Below, piece after piece: positions 2,031 to 12,698 of a DNA stretch of 32,000 nt. This stretch comes from Alphaproteobacteria bacterium (GTDB lineage Bacteria; Pseudomonadota; Alphaproteobacteria; Rs-D84). Every line of letters begins with the position of its first letter. The first letter of the stretch is position 1. The notes below the pieces were generated by a model. It was not told the origin of the DNA. It saw only the letters and a program-made list of their open reading frames with translations, and did no database searches. The DNA lies in assembly GCA_017475605.1 (NCBI GenBank), contig JAFVFD010000004.1, forward strand, positions 116,224-148,223. Direction: 5' to 3'. Made by a program: the position numbers and the translations under genes.

Positions 2031-2330
2031 TTATTTGCCGGAACAATCAATAATTGTGTCATCGTCTAAAATAAGGGTCCATTTTTCGCCCTGATTCCAC
2101 AAAACCACAATCGTATCGTTCAATATTCCGGCATATTTAGCACCCGATGCCGAAACAACATGCGACAATTCCAGTTCATCACCGTTTATATTGGCCGTCA
2201 TTGTGTCGCCCTCTTCTGAAAAGGTCATTTCCACGTCGTATCCGCCACATTTTTGGATTTCATTATTATCTTCGTGATTACACGCAACCAGTGGCAACAC
2301 ACAAACCAACATATACAGTAATTTTTTCAT
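2031..2330 (-). CDS. mliC: MliC-family lipoprotein (membrane-bound inhibitor of C-type lysozyme)
   Basis: MKKLLYMLVCVLPLVAC is a lipoprotein signal with a lipobox Cys. The mature part aligns by eye to E. coli MliC, with the Cys...SASGAKY...W..G...C pattern (E. coli has ISASGARY). The start could instead be the ATG at 2348, which would be leaderless. Confidence 0.75.
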   Translation of the reverse strand: MKKLLYMLVCVLPLVACNHEDNNEIQKCGGYDVEMTFSEEGDTMTANINGDELELSHVVSASGAKYAGILNDTIVVLWNQGEKWTLILDDDTIIDCSGK

Positions 2331-2387
2331 ATATTCCCCCATAAACATACGACTAATTATATCACAATTTCTTGTGATGTAAAATTG

Positions 2388-5530: not shown

Positions 5531-6040
5531 TTAATAGCGACCAATGCACCCCAAATATGAATTGCCGGTCGATTCGAGTATATTTATAAACTGATTTTGA
5601 TTTTTGCCCGAAAACAGTGCCAAAATCGTTCCTGCATCGGTCGCCAACATATCCGCAACCGTCGCAATAGACGAATTCATTTTCTTGAAAAAGCCACTTG
5701 TTGGGTATATTTCCGCCGCAAATAACTGGTGTCCACCACGCATTGTTGCGGACGTTTCCGCCCGAATAACCATTAACTGACATTCCGGGGAAATAATCAT
5801 TTTATCCGTTACAACCGCGCCACCACCCAGCAATTCGCCCCACCAACCCGTCGATTCGCAAAACACAGGATAATAAACCGTCGCATCGGGGGTTGCTTCA
5901 AATATAGCCGGCAAATCCAGTTCAGACGTTATAACATCGGGCATTTGGCCGGTTGCGGTATTTATGACCTTGCGTGCCAACTGGTATGTTGTATCACCAT
6001 TTGTTTTACGCGGCCAATAAAGAATCGGAAACTGCTTCAT
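5531..6040 (-). CDS. hypothetical protein (169 aa), no family recognised
   Basis: Long ORF with coding-like composition. It has its own TcTGATATAAT element 8 nt upstream of the ATG. It lies downstream of the first membrane-protein paralog on the same strand. Confidence 0.6.
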   Translation of the reverse strand: MKQFPILYWPRKTNGDTTYQLARKVINTATGQMPDVITSELDLPAIFEATPDATVYYPVFCESTGWWGELLGGGAVVTDKMIISPECQLMVIRAETSATMRGGHQLFAAEIYPTSGFFKKMNSSIATVADMLATDAGTILALFSGKNQNQFINILESTGNSYLGCIGRY

Positions 6041-6108: not shown

Positions 6109-7395
6109 TTATTTTTTTATACTTTTGTAGAATTTCTGCAGGTTTGACCACATTGTATCCAGGTTATTTTTTGTCGTTTTATAGAAATCATCTGACACTT
6201 TCACATTGAATAACGTTTTGATAAGTGCCGGAATTGACGTCATAAACATCGCAACAAACACACCCATCATTATGATTGTTATGATGCTGTCGTTGCGCAT
6301 CATGATGCCGTCCATAATAATAGTCGAATCGTTTTGGCTTAATGCCGCACTTAATGCCGATGCCCCGCCCCAATCGCCAAACACCGCATTTAAAAACATT
6401 ACGGCAAAAGTTATAAATATCCCCGTCAATGCGATACCCAGTGCGCCCTGGACAACATCATCAACAATGGCCCTTATATTTTTTCCACCCGCCGGCAATA
6501 TTTTCCACCCGTTAAATATCCAGGACAGCAGACTTATTGGCAGCATAATCAAATCAATAGACAGTTTGATAAATATTTCCAGCAAGAATATTGGTATCGG
6601 CAACAATGCCACAAAAAACAAAACCAAAATCAGCAATCCGCCAAAGAAAATTGGAATATTCGGGAAAAATGGAATCCCCCACATAATTTTGTGCATATAC
6701 CTTTCATTAAATGCCATATTAAGCATTGTCCACCCAATCGTCAGCCCAAGGCCCGTCATCTGATGAACACTGGCCAATTCACAGGCAAGATTATGCCGCA
6801 ACTTTGGCGAAAATGCCCCGCGGGACGCGGCCTCGGTCGATACAGATACCGGGTCTGCTATTGCGGTTGCGATTACACAGGTGTTAAAAGCCTCGTCCCC
6901 GGAAACAACATGATTCATTGACATACCGACACTAAATATCGGTTCAATCGCAATATCGTTAATAAGTCGCGGTAACGGCGCGACCAGCAACGCGCAAACA
7001 ACCCCCAATTTTACGAATCGGGCGCCAAAATCACCGGTAATAGACCATGGTTCTATGTTTTTTGCGTTCATATAACTGGACAACAACTGCCACGCCAGCC
7101 AAATAGCCAACAATATAGCCGCAAATGGCACCACAACCACACCAAGCGCACTGTAAACACCCGGCAATATATTCGATATTGTACCAATAATATCGGAAAA
7201 CATTTGACACGACCAACATGTTGTAAAAAAGTTTAGCGCATCATTCATATTAACCGGTGCAGCGGTACGATATATTGAAAACCCCGCCAAAACACCCACA
7301 CCGGCAATTGCACCCACGACAAATGGAGCGACCGCCCCTGCCCCAAATGGCAGGAACGATAAAAATACAATCCAAAACTTTTTAAACCAATTCAT
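6109..7395 (-). CDS. polytopic membrane protein, paralog 1 of 5 (TrbL/VirB6-like architecture, tentative)
   Basis: 428 aa with many TM segments. It has an N-proximal CWSC followed by MFSDI, the LPRLINDIAIEPI motif shared with paralog 3, the loop Cys pair NTC...LACELA, a hydrophobic core ending ...IDLIMLPISLLSWIF, and a Lys-rich C-terminus (KSIKK). Confidence 0.85.
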   Translation of the reverse strand: MNWFKKFWIVFLSFLPFGAGAVAPFVVGAIAGVGVLAGFSIYRTAAPVNMNDALNFFTTCWSCQMFSDIIGTISNILPGVYSALGVVVVPFAAILLAIWLAWQLLSSYMNAKNIEPWSITGDFGARFVKLGVVCALLVAPLPRLINDIAIEPIFSVGMSMNHVVSGDEAFNTCVIATAIADPVSVSTEAASRGAFSPKLRHNLACELASVHQMTGLGLTIGWTMLNMAFNERYMHKIMWGIPFFPNIPIFFGGLLILVLFFVALLPIPIFLLEIFIKLSIDLIMLPISLLSWIFNGWKILPAGGKNIRAIVDDVVQGALGIALTGIFITFAVMFLNAVFGDWGGASALSAALSQNDSTIIMDGIMMRNDSIITIIMMGVFVAMFMTSIPALIKTLFNVKVSDDFYKTTKNNLDTMWSNLQKFYKSIKK

Positions 7396-7402
7396 ATTTT
7401 TA

Positions 7403-7436
7403 AGTATATCACATTTTGTCCCAAATGTGATATAAT
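7403..7436. promoter_or_regulatory. divergent back-to-back extended -10 promoters embedded in a perfect 12-bp inverted repeat
   Basis: tatatcacattt (7405-7416) and aaatgtgatata (7423-7434) are perfect reverse complements separated by 6 nt. The plus arm reads TGTGATATAAT (7426-7436), 30 nt before the ATG at 7467, which has an AGAGAGA Shine-Dalgarno-like run. The minus arm reads TGTGATATACT (7403-7413), 7 nt before the ATG at 7395. Confidence 0.55.
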
Positions 7437-7466
7437 TGAAAAGATAAAATATAAATAGAAGAGAGA

Positions 7467-8735
7467 ATGAATCTTTTTCGGCGATTTTTACCGTACATGT
7501 TTTTGGCGGCTATGTTCATATTGCCGATGCCCGCATTTGCGGAATGGGGGATCATTGACCAATTAAACCTGGCCCCGTTTGTGCCACTGGTGCTGGATGC
7601 AATGATGACTATTGCCACCGGCGGATATGAATTTTTTGTTGGCAACGGAAACGGCATAATCTATTTATTGGTTTGGGGATTTATTGCCATTACGATTATT
7701 TTATACCTGGTGAAATTATATCTGCCGAAAACATGGGGCGATGTATTTGGCTTTTCTGGGTCCGGCACATTGTGGGATGGTAAAACAGGTGCGCAAACAA
7801 TTGTCTATAATGTTATGAAACCATGCCTGCGCGGCATTATTGCGGCGGTATTGTTGTTACAGATTCGCCCCGCTATGTTAACCCAGGTGTTAGTTAATCC
7901 GTTTTTACAATTTGGCGCAATTTATACACACGCAATAACAGAAACAATCAATGATGCAAAGGGAACCACGAAAAAGATAAAATGTCCGGAATCGATTGTT
8001 CAACACAAATGGATTTCTAAATCATCATGCGAATTTTTAATTCAACCGGTATCTGATTTATCGGCCGCGAACAACACGATTATTAAACGCGGATTTGAAT
8101 TTTTAACATCGGGGTTGCGTGGTCTTATTACAATTGTGCCACATGGTGGGGGCGACTTTTTAAACATCATCACTGGAATAATTTTAATTGCCACATTCTT
8201 TTCCAGCAATTTATTTATGGCATTGTTAATCATAGAAGCAATTTTCAAATTCGGCATGGCATTGGTACTGTATCCGTTCCAGGTATTGTCCTATGTCGCA
8301 AAGCCAAATGACAAATGGTTGGATATATGGCCTGCATTCGCCGGCATTACCAAGGAATTACAGGGGCTTGTTATCACAATGATAATGTGTTCGTTTATGT
8401 TGTGTATAAACCTGGCAATTATTCGCGCATTGTTCACATGGAATAATTCTATTTTTGTTGTTGCGGCCGGTGGCAGTGCATACAGCAATGTTCCCGTTGT
8501 CGCGCGTGCGGCCGGCGGATTTGGCGAACATTCTATTTTGTGGTTGTCGTCTATTTTGACCTTTTACCTTATGTTCAAATTATTCGACTTAACCCAGAAA
8601 CAACTTGAAACCTATGTTGGTGGGCGCGGTAAATTGTATGACCAGGTTATCGGCGACACAAAGACATTGTGGTCGCGAATCAAAGACACAGGCAAATCAA
8701 TCGGCACAGCGGCGGGGTGGATTAAAAAGAAATGA
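7467..8735 (+). CDS. polytopic membrane protein, paralog 2 of 5 (TrbL/VirB6-like architecture, tentative)
   Basis: 422 aa. It has a cleavable-looking signal peptide (…PMPAFA/EWGIIDQL, reminiscent of the TrbL N-terminus), the loop Cys pair KCPES...SSCEFL, a hydrophobic core ...KFGMALVLYPFQVLSYVA, and a C-terminal WIKKK. Confidence 0.85.
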   Translation: MNLFRRFLPYMFLAAMFILPMPAFAEWGIIDQLNLAPFVPLVLDAMMTIATGGYEFFVGNGNGIIYLLVWGFIAITIILYLVKLYLPKTWGDVFGFSGSGTLWDGKTGAQTIVYNVMKPCLRGIIAAVLLLQIRPAMLTQVLVNPFLQFGAIYTHAITETINDAKGTTKKIKCPESIVQHKWISKSSCEFLIQPVSDLSAANNTIIKRGFEFLTSGLRGLITIVPHGGGDFLNIITGIILIATFFSSNLFMALLIIEAIFKFGMALVLYPFQVLSYVAKPNDKWLDIWPAFAGITKELQGLVITMIMCSFMLCINLAIIRALFTWNNSIFVVAAGGSAYSNVPVVARAAGGFGEHSILWLSSILTFYLMFKLFDLTQKQLETYVGGRGKLYDQVIGDTKTLWSRIKDTGKSIGTAAGWIKKK

Positions 8736-9934
8736 ACGAAATAGCAGGCAATCTTATCGATGGCGCAATTCAATGCTATGGTTGTCCGATATTTGATCGG
8801 CTGTTTCAAATTGTGTCTGAATCTGCCGCGGCAATATATCGACCAATGGCATTTTTAGCCACATTGATTTTTGTTATATTGTTTGCATTCTATGTTGTTA
8901 ACGCGGTGTGGCAAAATATCAAGAAAGATGTTCCAGACCCATGGTATCAAAAATCGATTCGCCCAGTTATTATAAATTCATTAATTGCGCTGACTTTTTT
9001 GTGGGCGGGGGTTGGGCTGCCACGACTTATTACGACCGCAACTTTTGAACCTGTTACAGAAATATCATTAATCTATACACAAAGTATGCTTAACATTGAT
9101 AACGATGTTGTTAATGAACGCGTAACATATCAGCCAATGAAAATGTCAGACGATGGTTTTTTCAGACCACAACTGCGCGACAAAATTATTATGCTAATGA
9201 AAACAACGATTACCCAATTTCAATCATATATGAAACTTGGGATTGCGGTGATGGATACCGCGTTTACATGGCGTGCATTGCTGGGTATTGGATCCCTGGT
9301 TAAACATATTATTTTGTTCTTTGTTGGTTTATATATTTTCTATGCGTTCTTTAAATTATTTTTCAGGTTCTGTTGTTATTTCGCAGATATTATTGTTGCG
9401 ATGGCATTGTTTGCGTTTTTCTTTCCGTTATCTTTGGTATTAATTGCATTTCGTGGTGCAGACAATGTTCCATCGTGGATATCGGGTTTGGGTAAAGATG
9501 TTGGTATAAATCAATTTAAGAATCTTATAAACGCAATCGTTGCATTGGCATCTGCGGTGATAACATATACGGTAATTATGGTTATAATAGCGCGTTTCTT
9601 TACATCACCAGATGCATCGGTGGACGAAATTATAACCGCAATAACAACCGGCAATGTTTTCAACGCAGATTTATCTGATGATAACATTGAATCACTTACC
9701 ATTATGGGTACTGTTGTTTTGGTATATGTTATAAACTTTATACAAACCAAAATCCCAGAAGTAAGCAATATGGTTATGTCCGCATTTAATGTAAAGCCTG
9801 ATAATAAACTAAGTGAACAATTGGCAAACGATGCGATGGCATTAACATCTGCTACTTTTAACACTGTGAAAAATGTTGGTAAAATAATAATTAACGGTGG
9901 CGAAACCAAAGACAAGAAAGACGACAAGAAATGA
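8732..9934 (+). CDS. polytopic membrane protein, paralog 3 of 5 (TrbL/VirB6-like architecture, tentative)
   Basis: 400 aa. Its ATG overlaps the paralog 2 stop as ATGA (8732-8735). It has an N-terminal QCYGCPIFDRLFQIV (the IFD..F stretch resembles the VirB6 N-terminus), LPRLITTATFEPV, the core ...AMALFAFFFPLSLVLIAF, and a C-terminal KDKKDDKK. Confidence 0.85.
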   Translation: MNEIAGNLIDGAIQCYGCPIFDRLFQIVSESAAAIYRPMAFLATLIFVILFAFYVVNAVWQNIKKDVPDPWYQKSIRPVIINSLIALTFLWAGVGLPRLITTATFEPVTEISLIYTQSMLNIDNDVVNERVTYQPMKMSDDGFFRPQLRDKIIMLMKTTITQFQSYMKLGIAVMDTAFTWRALLGIGSLVKHIILFFVGLYIFYAFFKLFFRFCCYFADIIVAMALFAFFFPLSLVLIAFRGADNVPSWISGLGKDVGINQFKNLINAIVALASAVITYTVIMVIIARFFTSPDASVDEIITAITTGNVFNADLSDDNIESLTIMGTVVLVYVINFIQTKIPEVSNMVMSAFNVKPDNKLSEQLANDAMALTSATFNTVKNVGKIIINGGETKDKKDDKK

Positions 9935-11370
9935 AAGCAAAAATCATAATGATTCTTGTAAAATTCTTACTGGGCGCAATTGCGTTGGGCCTTGGTATTT
10001 GGTATTTGTCGTCATCTATTGGTGGGGATGCACTAACATATACCAGTATGGGCAACTTCATGACCGCAATTGGTGCGGGCGACAATGTAGCAAATACGAA
10101 CGGCTGTTTCTTTTGCAGGTATGTAACCGATTTGTTTGGTGTATTGGGGCGCGCGACCGAATTGTTTTGGGATGCGATTGTAAATTACCTTTGGTTATTA
10201 ATGGCTATTGGTTTTGGTGTATTCTTGTTCACATATACTGGACAATATATTTATGATGCCGCGAAAAAAACCGCCACATTGGATACAAAAGAAAAGAAAC
10301 TTGAACTAAAAGCCTGGTTTGACAAGGTCTGGCGCCAGGGTGTTCGTATTTTGGTTGCTGGTGCATTTTTGGGCACACTGGGGCTGGGTGGCACAACCGC
10401 ATTAAAATATGTCGCAAAAATCACTATTACCCCCGTTATGTTTGTTGGCGCAGAATTGGGAATGGCGGCATCTGGTGTATCTGATTCCACACATTGTGGT
10501 GCCATGGAAACGGTTGAAGAAACAAATGACATCTTAAACCCTGTATTACAACCATTTATGTGTTCTATTGGAAATCTTAATGCCGTAACATTGGCGGGTG
10601 CGGCCGGCGGCTTTTCATTAATGAATTACGCATGGCTGGGTATGGGCGGTGGCGCAATCACTTGGATTGCGGGATTGGCCCTGGTTATAATGTTTTTAAT
10701 TATCGGGTTTGATTTATTTTTCCAGGTACTGGGTGTCGTATTCAAATTGATATTCCTTATTATCTTTATGCCATTATTTATTGCGGCATATGCATTTGAA
10801 CCAGTATGGAAGGCCGCATCGGGACTTGTAACGCGGGCAATTGAAATGCTGGTTTCATCAGCAGTAAAAATAGTTGCAATATCATTAAAAATTGTGATTA
10901 TTTACGCGACGGTATCATATGCCGCCGATGCGTTTTTCCCAGGCCCCGTTGATGGGTTCAGCACAATTTTACCACCAATGATGAATCAAGCCGTTCAAAA
11001 TCCTGATGCAAAGACTTTGTCGGTAATGAACACATTTTCTGAATGCGAACGCGTCGCGTTGGCGGACGGCGAAATGGATGCAGATAAATTCAAAAACTGT
11101 TTTACCGCGCATCGCGCAACTGTTGAACGCAGATACCCAGGCGCATTTGATTTTATGGGCGACGGTTGGGGATTTATGATGTTGATGATTGGATTGTTCG
11201 CCTTGTATTATTGGGTCATATCGCCCAAGATTGATACGTTGTTGGCATCAACCAAAGACGGCGATGACACATTTGATTTTGGCACCAACATAAAACAGCT
11301 GGGTAAAAACATTTGGAACATACCGGTACAATTAACAGAAAAAATAACATCGGCATTGGGTAAAAAATAA
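9931..11370 (+). CDS. polytopic membrane protein, paralog 4 of 5 (TrbL/VirB6-like architecture, tentative)
   Basis: 479 aa, with an ATGA overlap with paralog 3 (9931-9934). It has GCFFCRYVTDLFG, the loop Cys pair THCGAME...PFMCSIGNL, and the core GFDLFFQVLGVVFKLIFLIIFMPLFIAAYAFEP (cf. A. tumefaciens VirB6 ...YDAVGILTKVLLAIGPLILVGYIF). It also has an extra Cys pair near the C-terminus and ends in GKK. Confidence 0.85.
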   Translation: MKAKIIMILVKFLLGAIALGLGIWYLSSSIGGDALTYTSMGNFMTAIGAGDNVANTNGCFFCRYVTDLFGVLGRATELFWDAIVNYLWLLMAIGFGVFLFTYTGQYIYDAAKKTATLDTKEKKLELKAWFDKVWRQGVRILVAGAFLGTLGLGGTTALKYVAKITITPVMFVGAELGMAASGVSDSTHCGAMETVEETNDILNPVLQPFMCSIGNLNAVTLAGAAGGFSLMNYAWLGMGGGAITWIAGLALVIMFLIIGFDLFFQVLGVVFKLIFLIIFMPLFIAAYAFEPVWKAASGLVTRAIEMLVSSAVKIVAISLKIVIIYATVSYAADAFFPGPVDGFSTILPPMMNQAVQNPDAKTLSVMNTFSECERVALADGEMDADKFKNCFTAHRATVERRYPGAFDFMGDGWGFMMLMIGLFALYYWVISPKIDTLLASTKDGDDTFDFGTNIKQLGKNIWNIPVQLTEKITSALGKK

Positions 11371-12698
11371 TGATGAAATATGTGCGTACATTTTTATCAA
11401 AATTATTTATCGCAATCGTGTGTGCGGTAATATCTGTGTCTGCGATTGCGGCAACTAATATCCCCGCCGGTGACATTGGCGATTACGGAAACTTTATCAC
11501 CGAACAAAACATAGATTCGTTCCGCAAGGCACTTGTCGGCGAAGATGGCGACTTGGTCTATTTCCAGGATAATTTCCAGAAACAATTAGTGCGCGATTAT
11601 GTCCCAGTAGAAGCACGTGTTGGCCTTGCAATGATGAATGCGTTAACACATGTCGCAAAAATACTGGATACAACACTGGTACGATTTATGGTGATATTCA
11701 TAATTGTTATGTATCTTTTCTGGGTGATGTTCGAAGCATATAATTTCATGTCCGGTGGTACAGGTAATGTAAAAAAACTATTTATGGATATTGGTAAAAA
11801 GGCAATATGGATAATTATATGGATGGCTGTTTTAGAAATAGGCCCCGCTGAATTATTCTTGTATGCAATGATGCCTATTATTTCAATCGGGACTTACTTG
11901 TCTGATTTTATTTTGAACGCGGTTGCGGCTGTATCGGGTGCCGTTTTGCCGGACACATGCGCGGCCATTCATGAATATACTGCTGCAAATGCTGCACCAA
12001 ATATGTTAATAAGTGCGAATGCCGCCGCCGACCTTATGTGTGTGCCGACACGTCTTTCCGGATTTTTCACCAGTGCAATTGCGATGGGGTGGAAATGGAT
12101 GGTTGGTGGCATTGGGCACAGTGCGTTTGGCTTTGCCATTGGTGCCGCATTTGTCGTTGTCTTTGCGTGGAACACGTGGAAATTCGCATTGATGGCATTG
12201 GGTGTAATAATGGACTTGTTCCTGGGGATAATAATGTTGCCGTTTACTGCATTGGCCGAAACAATAACACCAACATCGTACAAGGGACTGGCCGGAAACA
12301 TTTTCAATGGCTTTATAAAACTATTCAATGTGGGGCCGGTAAAGTTGGATGCGCAAATAAGTCGCTTTGTTAATGCCGCAATTTATTTTGTAACATTATC
12401 TATTGTTATTGCGATTTGTGCGGGGTTGCTGTACGGAATAATTGGAACAGATTCGGCAAATCAAATACCAACCTTGGAAAACGATGGCTTTATACCGGCA
12501 TTGCTAACAGGTTTACTTACTGCGTACCTGGCGAATCGCGCAGATGAATTTGCGAATAAACTGGGCGGCAAAGACAAGGGCTTGGTAGATACATCTTTTG
12601 GAACTAAATTCGGCGAAGATATAAAAACATTGGCCACCAACACATATAAAACCGCGAAAGATTGGGCCAAGGCAATCGCCGATGACAAGAAAAAATAA
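11370..12698 (+). CDS. polytopic membrane protein, paralog 5 of 5 (TrbL/VirB6-like architecture, tentative)
   Basis: 442 aa, with a TAATG one-base overlap with paralog 4. It has a signal peptide (...VSAIAATN), the loop Cys pair DTCAAIHE...LMCVPTRL, the core ...VIMDLFLGIIMLPFTALAETI, and a C-terminal ADDKKK. Confidence 0.85.
   Translation: MMKYVRTFLSKLFIAIVCAVISVSAIAATNIPAGDIGDYGNFITEQNIDSFRKALVGEDGDLVYFQDNFQKQLVRDYVPVEARVGLAMMNALTHVAKILDTTLVRFMVIFIIVMYLFWVMFEAYNFMSGGTGNVKKLFMDIGKKAIWIIIWMAVLEIGPAELFLYAMMPIISIGTYLSDFILNAVAAVSGAVLPDTCAAIHEYTAANAAPNMLISANAAADLMCVPTRLSGFFTSAIAMGWKWMVGGIGHSAFGFAIGAAFVVVFAWNTWKFALMALGVIMDLFLGIIMLPFTALAETITPTSYKGLAGNIFNGFIKLFNVGPVKLDAQISRFVNAAIYFVTLSIVIAICAGLLYGIIGTDSANQIPTLENDGFIPALLTGLLTAYLANRADEFANKLGGKDKGLVDTSFGTKFGEDIKTLATNTYKTAKDWAKAIADDKKK

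Follow-up and report, generated by a model that had tools for sequence, protein, structure and literature searches.

The window analysed here, a 32,000-nucleotide stretch of contig JAFVFD010000004.1 from an alphaproteobacterium of Candidatus Enterousia (order Rs-D84), carries five adjacent genes, P1 to P5 (W1 to W5 in comparisons between loci; array positions a-b-c-d-e), whose products very probably belong to the VirB6/TrbL superfamily of type IV secretion system (T4SS) proteins. We favour, with about even confidence, the reading that they are the five subunits of an old platform of the VirB6 type, plausibly a hetero-pentamer, for a T4SS-related envelope machine. Species-representative genomes assign the locus to Ca. 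Enterousia and its relatives. (Near-)exact copies of these proteins are annotated only as hypothetical, in metagenome-assembled genomes of uncultured Alphaproteobacteria, and 725-831 homologs were found for each paralog. The resemblance to VirB6/TrbL had been noticed by eye in a sequence-only reading of the window, and the searches described below bear it out.

The link to VirB6 is well supported because transitive homology, profile-profile alignment and the predicted fold of P1 converge on the same family. A profile search with P1 and P3 among 1.84 billion representatives returned 498 proteins at E ≤ 1e-3, many of them 600-1500 amino acids (aa) long with the homologous core of ~400 residues inside. 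The Pfam family TrbL/VirB6 (PF04610) was matched by 32 of 68 remote homologs (best E 1e-8), at positions ~80-190 of 215 in its hidden Markov model (HMM) and within the stretch aligned with P1 residues ~230-345. Additionally, NCBIfam VirB6/TrbL models matched five remote members, and PF04610 is carried by P0371, the closest remote relative of P4, and by several array genes according to precomputed annotation.

For profile-profile alignment, a reference profile was built from four bona fide VirB6 proteins of annotated plasmids, each encoded directly upstream of virB7/virB8 and preceded by virB5 or an eex gene where the upstream gene was seen. Against this 4-sequence profile, hhalign gave probabilities of 68% for family profile A4, 45% for A3 (built from P1 and P3 orthologs plus remote representatives) and 51% for the remote-domain profile (E 5e-5 to 2e-4), the usual confidence level being 90-95%. 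The alignments covered up to 153 columns and VirB6 residues 133-288. Control comparisons (four unrelated membrane proteins, 20 column-shuffled and one reversed VirB6) stayed at ≤0.2%, with scores of ≤16 vs 38-44 for real VirB6. The alignment was anchored by the family motif LPLxIvaWVFxxT against GPLILTGYIFDRT in VirB6, which is the site that had been aligned by eye (..MPLFIAAYAF.. vs ..GPLILTGYIF..). In remote members, the motif reads LPLLxVAWVFPxTxxYxKxAW and places a Trp 19 residues past the Pro, vs 18 in VirB6 (Agrobacterium ..GPLILTGYIFDRTRDIAAKW..).

Structure prediction and Foldseek comparison, proposed as checks in the sequence-only reading, were run for P1 as a monomer. The AlphaFold2 model made from a 53-sequence diverse alignment reached a pLDDT of 78.2 and a pTM of 0.70; an earlier model from a shallow ortholog alignment (pLDDT 55.6) was discarded. 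Ranks 1-5 against the PDB were all chains of R388 TrwI/VirB6 (8rtd_L, 8rt9_F and 7o3v_J/G/F) with a probability of 1.00, target-normalised TM-scores of 0.48-0.55 over ~340 columns and 10-14% identity to the solved chains. Three further chains of TrwI/VirB6 complexes followed at probabilities of 0.72-0.84, whereas every non-VirB6 match had a probability of ≤0.18 and a TM-score of ≤0.21. The PDB matches of P1 are chains of the TrwJ/TrwI stalk complex, and TrwI (PDB 7O3V, 8RT9, 8RTD) is its best and only confident structural match. TrwI, Agrobacterium VirB6 and the P1 model are all-helical and polytopic, with a C-terminal helical bundle that includes the invariant-Pro helix (LPxxL..W/Y.F in the family vs GPLILTGYIF).

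The likeness to VirB6 might instead come from chance or composition in unrelated helical membrane transporters, which we consider very improbable and already largely refuted. The following points would speak for it or weigh against the platform reading. A profile search of each protein against PF04610, another check proposed beforehand, gave nothing: neither P1-P5 nor the soluble neighbour hyp169 had any hmmscan match at E ≤ 1 in Pfam-A or NCBIfam, PF04610 included, and P1-P5 did not reach the thresholds of the TrbL/VirB6 models PF04610, PRK13852 and TIGR02783. No significant match was found among PDB sequences for P4 (phmmer) or profile A3. The hhalign probabilities with VirB6 are moderate (<70%) and fall below 2% for shallow single-paralog profiles; 0.07-2.3% was all that shallow profiles reached with a single VirB6, and broader profiles had to be used on both sides before any signal emerged. 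The Foldseek E values are only 7e-3 to 6e-2, and thus >1e-3, with query-normalised TM-scores of 0.33-0.37 and a root-mean-square deviation of 8-11 A. In addition, the Trp past the invariant Pro occurs at +17 in P3, near the position of the essential Trp of VirB6, and at +18 in P2, and there is none there in P1, P4 and P5. On the other side, the unrelated, shuffled and reversed controls and the other membrane proteins of the PDB all scored at the low levels given above, and three methods, independent of one another, agree on both the family and the segment. Within the superfamily, these proteins form a distinct, uncurated branch whose members are longer than classical VirB6 and have an extra N-terminal region as well as a central loop with Cys pairs.

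The sequence-only reading had called the five proteins clearly paralogous. Pairwise comparison alone does not carry that claim, P1-P3 being the sole significant pair by BLASTP (2e-9, 21% identity over 377 residues) and the remaining pairs giving marginal yet collinear alignments; paralogy is established by profile comparisons. Ortholog profiles built from eight related loci and compared with hhalign gave 96% for P1-P3, 90% for P2-P5, 65% for P4-P5, 55% for both P1-P2 and P1-P4, and 37% for P1-P5, all collinear and near full length, vs ≤0.4% for hyp169 as a control. Moreover, the broad family HMM (A3) matched all five proteins over their full length, with E values of 1.7e-152 for P1, 8e-34 for P4, 2.9e-32 for P5 and 1.2e-21 for P2, and individual remote proteins matched several paralog HMMs at once, such as P0349 with those of P1, P3, P4 and P5. 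Judged from these profiles, P1-P5 are true paralogs and very old. The ratio of nonsynonymous to synonymous substitution rates (dN/dS) against locus L002 (L-numbers denote related loci) was 0.06-0.11 over the five genes (P1 0.11, P2 0.06, P5 0.11), with dS near saturation; by this measure, all five are under purifying selection.

The five open reading frames (ORFs) were found exactly where, and exactly as long as, the sequence-only reading had placed them, and the overlapping start and stop codons that it described for P2-P5 are present (Table 1). Simple hydropathy gave 5-7 hydrophobic segments per protein and a central loop of ~100 residues, which contains a second Cys pair. An N-terminal signal or transmembrane (TM) segment had been assigned to all five; this does not hold for P3, in which simple hydropathy showed no N-terminal hydrophobic segment, and P1 has several. 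The first Cys pair, a CxxC motif, occurs only in P1 (CWSC, residues 60-63), P3 (CYGC, 15-18) and P4 (CFFC, 59-62), and is missing from P2 and P5. Four invariant family positions, equivalent to P152, G221, G253 and P286 of P1, are common to all five proteins (P145, G209, G237 and P270 in P2). The last of them is the Pro of the predicted x-P-(L/F/I) helix, which is present in five of five (P232 in P3, P281 in P4, P291 in P5) and is one of just two positions without variation in the family alignment A3. The Lys-rich C-termini were likewise seen in all five proteins.

P1 is read divergently from the other four genes, and the palindromic control region postulated between P1 and P2 indeed contains a perfect 12-nt inverted repeat, TATATCACATTT-N6-AAATGTGATATA, at 7405-7434. 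A promoter scan found sigma-70-like matches that overlap this repeat on both strands (plus strand, 7408-7436, 10/12 with TG; minus strand, 7431-7403, 9/12), and a GAGAGA ribosome-binding sequence precedes the P2 ATG. The repeat is kept in L002-L007, being identical in three orthologous loci and retaining its dyad with 1-2 mismatches in three more distant ones. The palindrome at 7405-7434 may work as an operator.

Within Enterousia, the gene order PBP1A-SuhB-rpmE-hyp169-P1 <> P2-P3-P4-P5-UvrD-DnaQ is kept in eight of eight loci (species representatives), and every locus covering the complete array retains five intact genes. More widely, the contexts of remote members and a metagenome scan together yielded a set of 49 loci (720 kb) with ~40 related arrays. 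Nearly always, family members form tandem arrays of 3-5 genes on the chromosome, among housekeeping genes (SufBD, GidA, GreA, IleRS, DksA, AsmA, rpsB-tsf-pyrH-frr, MnmE, AmiC and transketolase), and the GC content over all array loci ranges from 29 to 58%. Five-member arrays were found in Enterousia, L010, L016, L018 (at least five), L025, L028, L030, L034 and L037. Distant relatives are extended, with lengths of 474-857 aa in L010 and up to 1292 aa in L011.

Positional orthology across lineages was seen in both the phmmer score matrix (W1-L016a 75, W3-L016c 56, W4-L016d 82) and a bootstrapped neighbour-joining tree, and for this reason the array order appears to be ancient. Positions b, c and d are mutual best matches among L010, L016 and L018 (phmmer scores 40-106). 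In the tree, the position-4 clade (W4, L016d, L010d, L018d and L017b) received 79% bootstrap support, W3+L016c 76%, L010e+L017c 71%, W2+L016b 43% and W1+L016a 20%. The five-gene array in P1-P5 order would therefore be older than the divergence of at least several lineages, with uneven support among positions.

The five genes might alternatively encode interchangeable, homo-oligomeric VirB6 variants for host-range, antigenic or substrate variation. The array proteins do evolve quickly, with a dN 2-4 times that of the flanking SuhB and an identity of only 43-74% for P5 across Enterousia loci; arrays have between 3 and 5 members depending on the lineage, and the VirB6 paralogs of Anaplasma and Ehrlichia are reportedly discussed as variable components (PMC7648143). 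We nevertheless find this explanation improbable: the start-stop overlaps in P2-P5 indicate that their products are made together in stoichiometric amounts, positional orthology is partly kept across lineages of 29-50% GC, dN/dS is ~0.1 and not elevated, and within Enterousia nothing suggests gene conversion, pseudogene formation or a change in copy number.

Because five ordered paralogs recur, P2-P5 overlap, a palindromic promoter is shared with P1 and purifying selection is uniform, the five products may well be non-redundant subunits of one hetero-oligomer, although we would not put this above an even chance. The overlapping codons suggest coupled synthesis of P2-P5. That the complex is exactly a hetero-pentamer is a more tentative proposal, made by analogy with two pentameric precedents. 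In R388, the bulk of VirB6 forms a periplasmic pentameric platform that is anchored in the inner membrane via two N-proximal helices; this platform is the docking site of a VirB5 pentamer and the place to which VirB2 pilins are recruited (PMC12857230). DotA of the Dot/Icm system is likewise pentameric (PMC12857230). No proposal of a hetero-pentamer for RvhB6 or VirB6 was found in the limited collection of literature searched.

The host gives this platform a possible setting. [quoted passage not shown] In the favoured model, the five genes would encode divergent VirB6/TrbL members, the family of the central pentameric platform subunit at the base of the T4SS stalk. The array would be ancient and vertically inherited, with the order a-b-c-d-e kept elsewhere and P1 inverted in Enterousia. 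P2-P5 synthesis would be coupled through the overlapping starts and stops, and P1 would probably be co-regulated with them via the common palindromic promoter region. One copy of each paralog would fill the five positions taken by identical VirB6 subunits in R388 or by DotA in Dot/Icm, and the resulting platform, placed in the inner membrane and periplasm, would be part of a T4SS-related envelope machine. By analogy, this reduced-genome, biosynthetically deficient bacterium could use the machine to engage a partner or host cell. Other T4SS parts, if present, would be encoded elsewhere, as in the Rickettsia 'archipelago'.

The genomic context weighs on the other side. The sequence-only reading had noted no other secretion genes nearby; no other T4SS component is found in the window, relaxed thresholds included, and the same is true near the related arrays. 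VirB1-5, VirB8-11 and TraG of pTiC58 gave no phmmer match at E ≤ 0.01 among 2,682 ORFs of the 49 loci (720 kb), and VirB4, B8-B11, D4, B2, B3 and B5 were all missing within ±10 kb of ~40 related arrays. At none of these ~40 loci does the array stand beside a complete virB operon, the layout that would have made it an ordinary split T4SS locus. Array neighbours looked up singly had no precomputed Pfam T4SS family except TrbL, and no T4SS Pfam domain was found at relaxed thresholds in unannotated neighbours and large flank proteins. Flank proteins with a Walker-A motif were only housekeeping enzymes or low-complexity Lys/Glu/Ala-rich proteins; two of them considered as ATPases (L028, 939 aa; L038, 342 aa) were rejected as belonging to the latter kind. 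VirB4 is conserved enough to have shown up in the loci searched. T4SS dependence is thus without linkage support, there being no T4SS gene in the window or within ±10 kb of ~40 arrays. Literature searches returned no report of T4SS genes in Rs-D84/Enterousia, and the metabolic reconstruction of Enterousia never mentions 'secretion' (PMC12306168). Counting on the same side, many related arrays have three or four members, not five, and orthogroup support is weak at positions a, b and e (20-43% bootstrap).

These results raise the prospect of an autonomous inner-membrane/periplasmic complex of VirB6 fold that operates without VirB4 or other T4SS parts, as a conduit or anchor for partner exchange or for export of neighbouring secreted proteins. 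We hold this to be unlikely, though the most serious of the alternatives. It would account for the lack of T4SS genes beside ~40 arrays (720 kb), with only housekeeping ATPases in the flanks, and for the recurrent accessory genes of distant arrays (small two-TM proteins, double HTH_3 proteins, long low-complexity proteins and a membrane protein of 336-473 aa). Among 72,556 plasmids, the family is all but missing, with a single marginal match (P0371, E 0.01) to an annotated T4SS protein; no secretion system is described in the Enterousia papers, and a full T4SS of at least 10 genes would be a large investment for a ~0.9-Mb genome. However, VirB6 has no known function outside T4SSs (PMC12857230), vir genes are scattered in Rickettsia, so that an unlinked gene need not be absent from the genome (PMC2653234), and the M23 and VgrG3-like fusions of extended relatives resemble T4SS-associated functions of the VirB1 type. 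A still less probable form of the idea is a T4SS-independent hetero-pentameric VirB6-fold envelope machine with its own accessory genes elsewhere, common among uncultured bacteria of gut and rumen, through which reduced-genome, partner-dependent bacteria would obtain material from other cells or exchange it with them. Under the favoured platform reading, we see the chances as evenly split on whether the array is part of a complete, dispersed T4SS.

The analogy with Rickettsiales drawn in the sequence-only reading is apt. Rickettsia has five tandem RvhB6 paralogs of 674-1154 aa that follow rvhB3-rvhB4, and their ~413-aa VirB6/TrbL domains are ~80% divergent from each other (Gillespie et al. 2009, PMC2653234). 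RvhB6a-e, compared here by their published description, and the Enterousia proteins are alike in that both are sets of five tandem, chromosomal, vertically inherited and highly divergent VirB6-domain paralogs in a reduced alphaproteobacterial genome. The domain length is similar (~413 aa vs 400-479 aa for the whole window proteins), and the window paralogs are mostly undetectable to each other by pairwise BLAST. The 18 vir genes of Rickettsia lie in five islets (PMC2653234), outside a single operon, likewise here. However, the Rickettsia array directly follows rvhB3-rvhB4, whereas no VirB3 or VirB4 adjoins the Enterousia array or ~40 related loci. RvhB6 proteins have large flanking hydrophilic regions and match PF04610 directly, whereas the Enterousia proteins are domain-only and match no curated model. 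Unlike in Rickettsia, one gene of the Enterousia array is inverted behind a palindromic divergent promoter.

Canonical VirB6 is a protein of ~260-310 aa, encoded by a single-copy and often plasmid-borne gene between virB5 and virB7/8, and forms a homo-pentamer. The window proteins differ in length (400-479 aa), in their extra N-terminal region (with CxxC in three of five), in the central loop of ~100 aa and in being encoded by five genes. Extended VirB6 proteins (VirB6-1 to VirB6-4 of Anaplasma and Ehrlichia; VirB6-like proteins such as TcpH and PrgH of the Gram-positive MPF_FA type) resemble the distant family members in having a core with large extra domains and tandem paralogs. Unlike the arrays described here, the genes of known extended VirB6 proteins have VirB4 and further T4SS genes beside them, and the window proteins have no such extensions. 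A further parallel is the T4SS of Saccharibacteria (Patescibacteria), which is essential for epibiotic growth and includes six divergent VirB2-like pilins in an array (PMC12857230). There too, one T4SS component has been expanded to a divergent tandem array in a reduced-genome, partner-dependent bacterium; in that case, however, it is the VirB2 pilin, the bacterium is monoderm, and the locus includes VirB4, VirB6, VirB8 and VirD4.

Table 1. Location of the array genes, their control region and neighbouring features in the window, and of recurrent features at related loci
Feature	Location	Strand	Remarks
P1	6109..7395	-	428 aa; position a; probable VirB6/TrbL-superfamily paralog, inverted relative to P2-P5
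P2	7467..8735	+	422 aa; position b; most divergent paralog
P3	8732..9934	+	400 aa; position c; ATGA overlap with P2 (8732-8735)
P4	9931..11370	+	479 aa; position d; ATGA overlap with P3 (9931-9934); best-conserved orthogroup across lineages
P5	11370..12698	+	442 aa; position e; start overlaps P4 stop (TAATG, 11368-11372); fastest-evolving paralog
Divergent control region P1/P2	7396..7466	.	71-bp spacer; inverted repeat, promoter-like sites, ribosome-binding sequence
hyp169	5531..6040	-	Soluble protein of 169 aa; 68 bp downstream of P1, same strand
MliC-type gene	2031-2348	-	Between MraY-like transferase and PBP1A
Secreted protein, 457 aa	15584-16957	-	No Pfam family
Secreted protein, 945 aa	16966-19803	-	No Pfam family
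Secreted protein, 695 aa	20624-22711	-	No Pfam family
Secreted protein, 145 aa	22889-23326	-	No Pfam family
HTH_3 block after the array	L011 14010-19926; L013 15409-22099; L025 11827-20463		Similar in L028, L030, L034, L038, L039, L047, L048 and L055
Small two-TM genes	L010 4967-5227; L016 9768-10004; L025 9770-9991; L011 2669-2842		
Membrane protein of 336-473 aa	L010 1567-2829(-); L016 5910-6920(-); L013 3930-5192; L015 4745-6166(-)		
Extended member P0399	L011 10001-13879		1292 aa

Several other genes recur at the related loci. A conserved block comes after the array in one large clade, with a double HTH_3 protein of ~325 aa, then a low-complexity Lys/Glu/Ala-rich protein of 720-1290 aa, and then two or three unannotated genes. 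No T4SS domain was found in the proteins of this block, which may be accessory parts or regulators in those lineages. Small two-TM proteins (57-86 aa), mostly with a Lys-rich tail, are encoded directly upstream of or within distant arrays; they have the size and topology of VirB3 or pilins but no significant similarity to VirB2, to VirB3 or to each other, and the Enterousia locus has no counterpart. Near the arrays of four otherwise different lineages lies a gene for a weakly conserved polytopic membrane protein of 336-473 aa (~18-21% identity, E ~1e-8), which is divergent from the array in L010 and L016 and has no detected equivalent in the window. Among the 68 remote homologs, extended members fuse the core to domains of peptidoglycan hydrolases or of toxin type, namely Peptidase_M23 (nine proteins), a T6SS VgrG3-like C-terminal domain (two), RHS repeats (one) or TcaA_2nd (one), which suggests that cell-wall remodelling or effector functions are attached to the platform.

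The flanks of the Enterousia array are as the sequence-only reading described them, namely rpmE, a hypothetical gene and uvrD, with SuhB/PBP1A and DnaQ beyond, in all Enterousia loci. The hypothetical gene, hyp169, is 75-92% conserved in all of these loci, and its rate of evolution is as low as that of housekeeping genes (dN/dS 0.05). It has no Pfam or NCBIfam match and no homolog beside distant arrays; it is possibly co-transcribed with P1, and its membership in the system is uncertain. The GC content of the array has its minimum (36%) at 9001-10000, within P3, vs a window mean of 43%, and the sign of the GC skew flips across the array, tracking the switch of coding strand; nothing else hints at a foreign source. 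An origin by recent horizontal transfer or as a mobile element was rejected on the grounds of the genus-wide synteny with housekeeping genes, the only slightly low GC content and the near absence of the family from plasmids.

Other genes in the window encode an MraY-type transferase, MliC, PPDK, L21, an acyltransferase, a GNAT protein and several unannotated secreted proteins. The secreted proteins of 945 aa (44 Cys) and 695 aa (25 Cys) are paralogs (BLASTP 2e-14), each with a signal peptide, a Thr/Arg/Ala-rich low-complexity region and the motif CxExYxxCMDxxCx7RCxC. The neighbouring proteins of 457 and 145 aa have signal peptides too, and the 945-aa protein is 57-79% conserved in several Enterousia loci. 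This Cys-rich cluster may represent surface or adhesion proteins of a partner-dependent host. Neither the Cys-rich secreted proteins nor hyp169 were counted as parts of the system, since they do not recur beside distant arrays. The MliC-type gene, for a membrane-bound inhibitor of C-type lysozyme, fits with exposure to animal lysozyme in the gut.

Among the core subunits of T4SSs, VirB6 is the least understood, and its five divergent genes in Rickettsia have been a puzzle since 2009. In 2022, VirB6 was reportedly shown to be a pentameric periplasmic platform and not a SecY-like channel. Arrays with a conserved gene order, in many cases of exactly five VirB6-like genes that encode little more than the domain, are present outside Rickettsiales, in Ca. 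Enterousia and in many metagenomic lineages (29-58% GC). With them, both the hetero-pentamer idea, in which one paralog would occupy each platform position, and a T4SS-independent function of VirB6 become testable, and the Enterousia proteins, at 400-480 aa and without extensions, offer a minimal test system. Should VirB4 prove to be missing from the genomes, no earlier VirB6-based system would be known to run without a T4SS. For Enterousia itself, a bacterium with a ~0.9-Mb genome and without biosynthesis or standard transporters, the five array genes, to which ~0.7% of the genome is devoted, are a candidate interaction machine.

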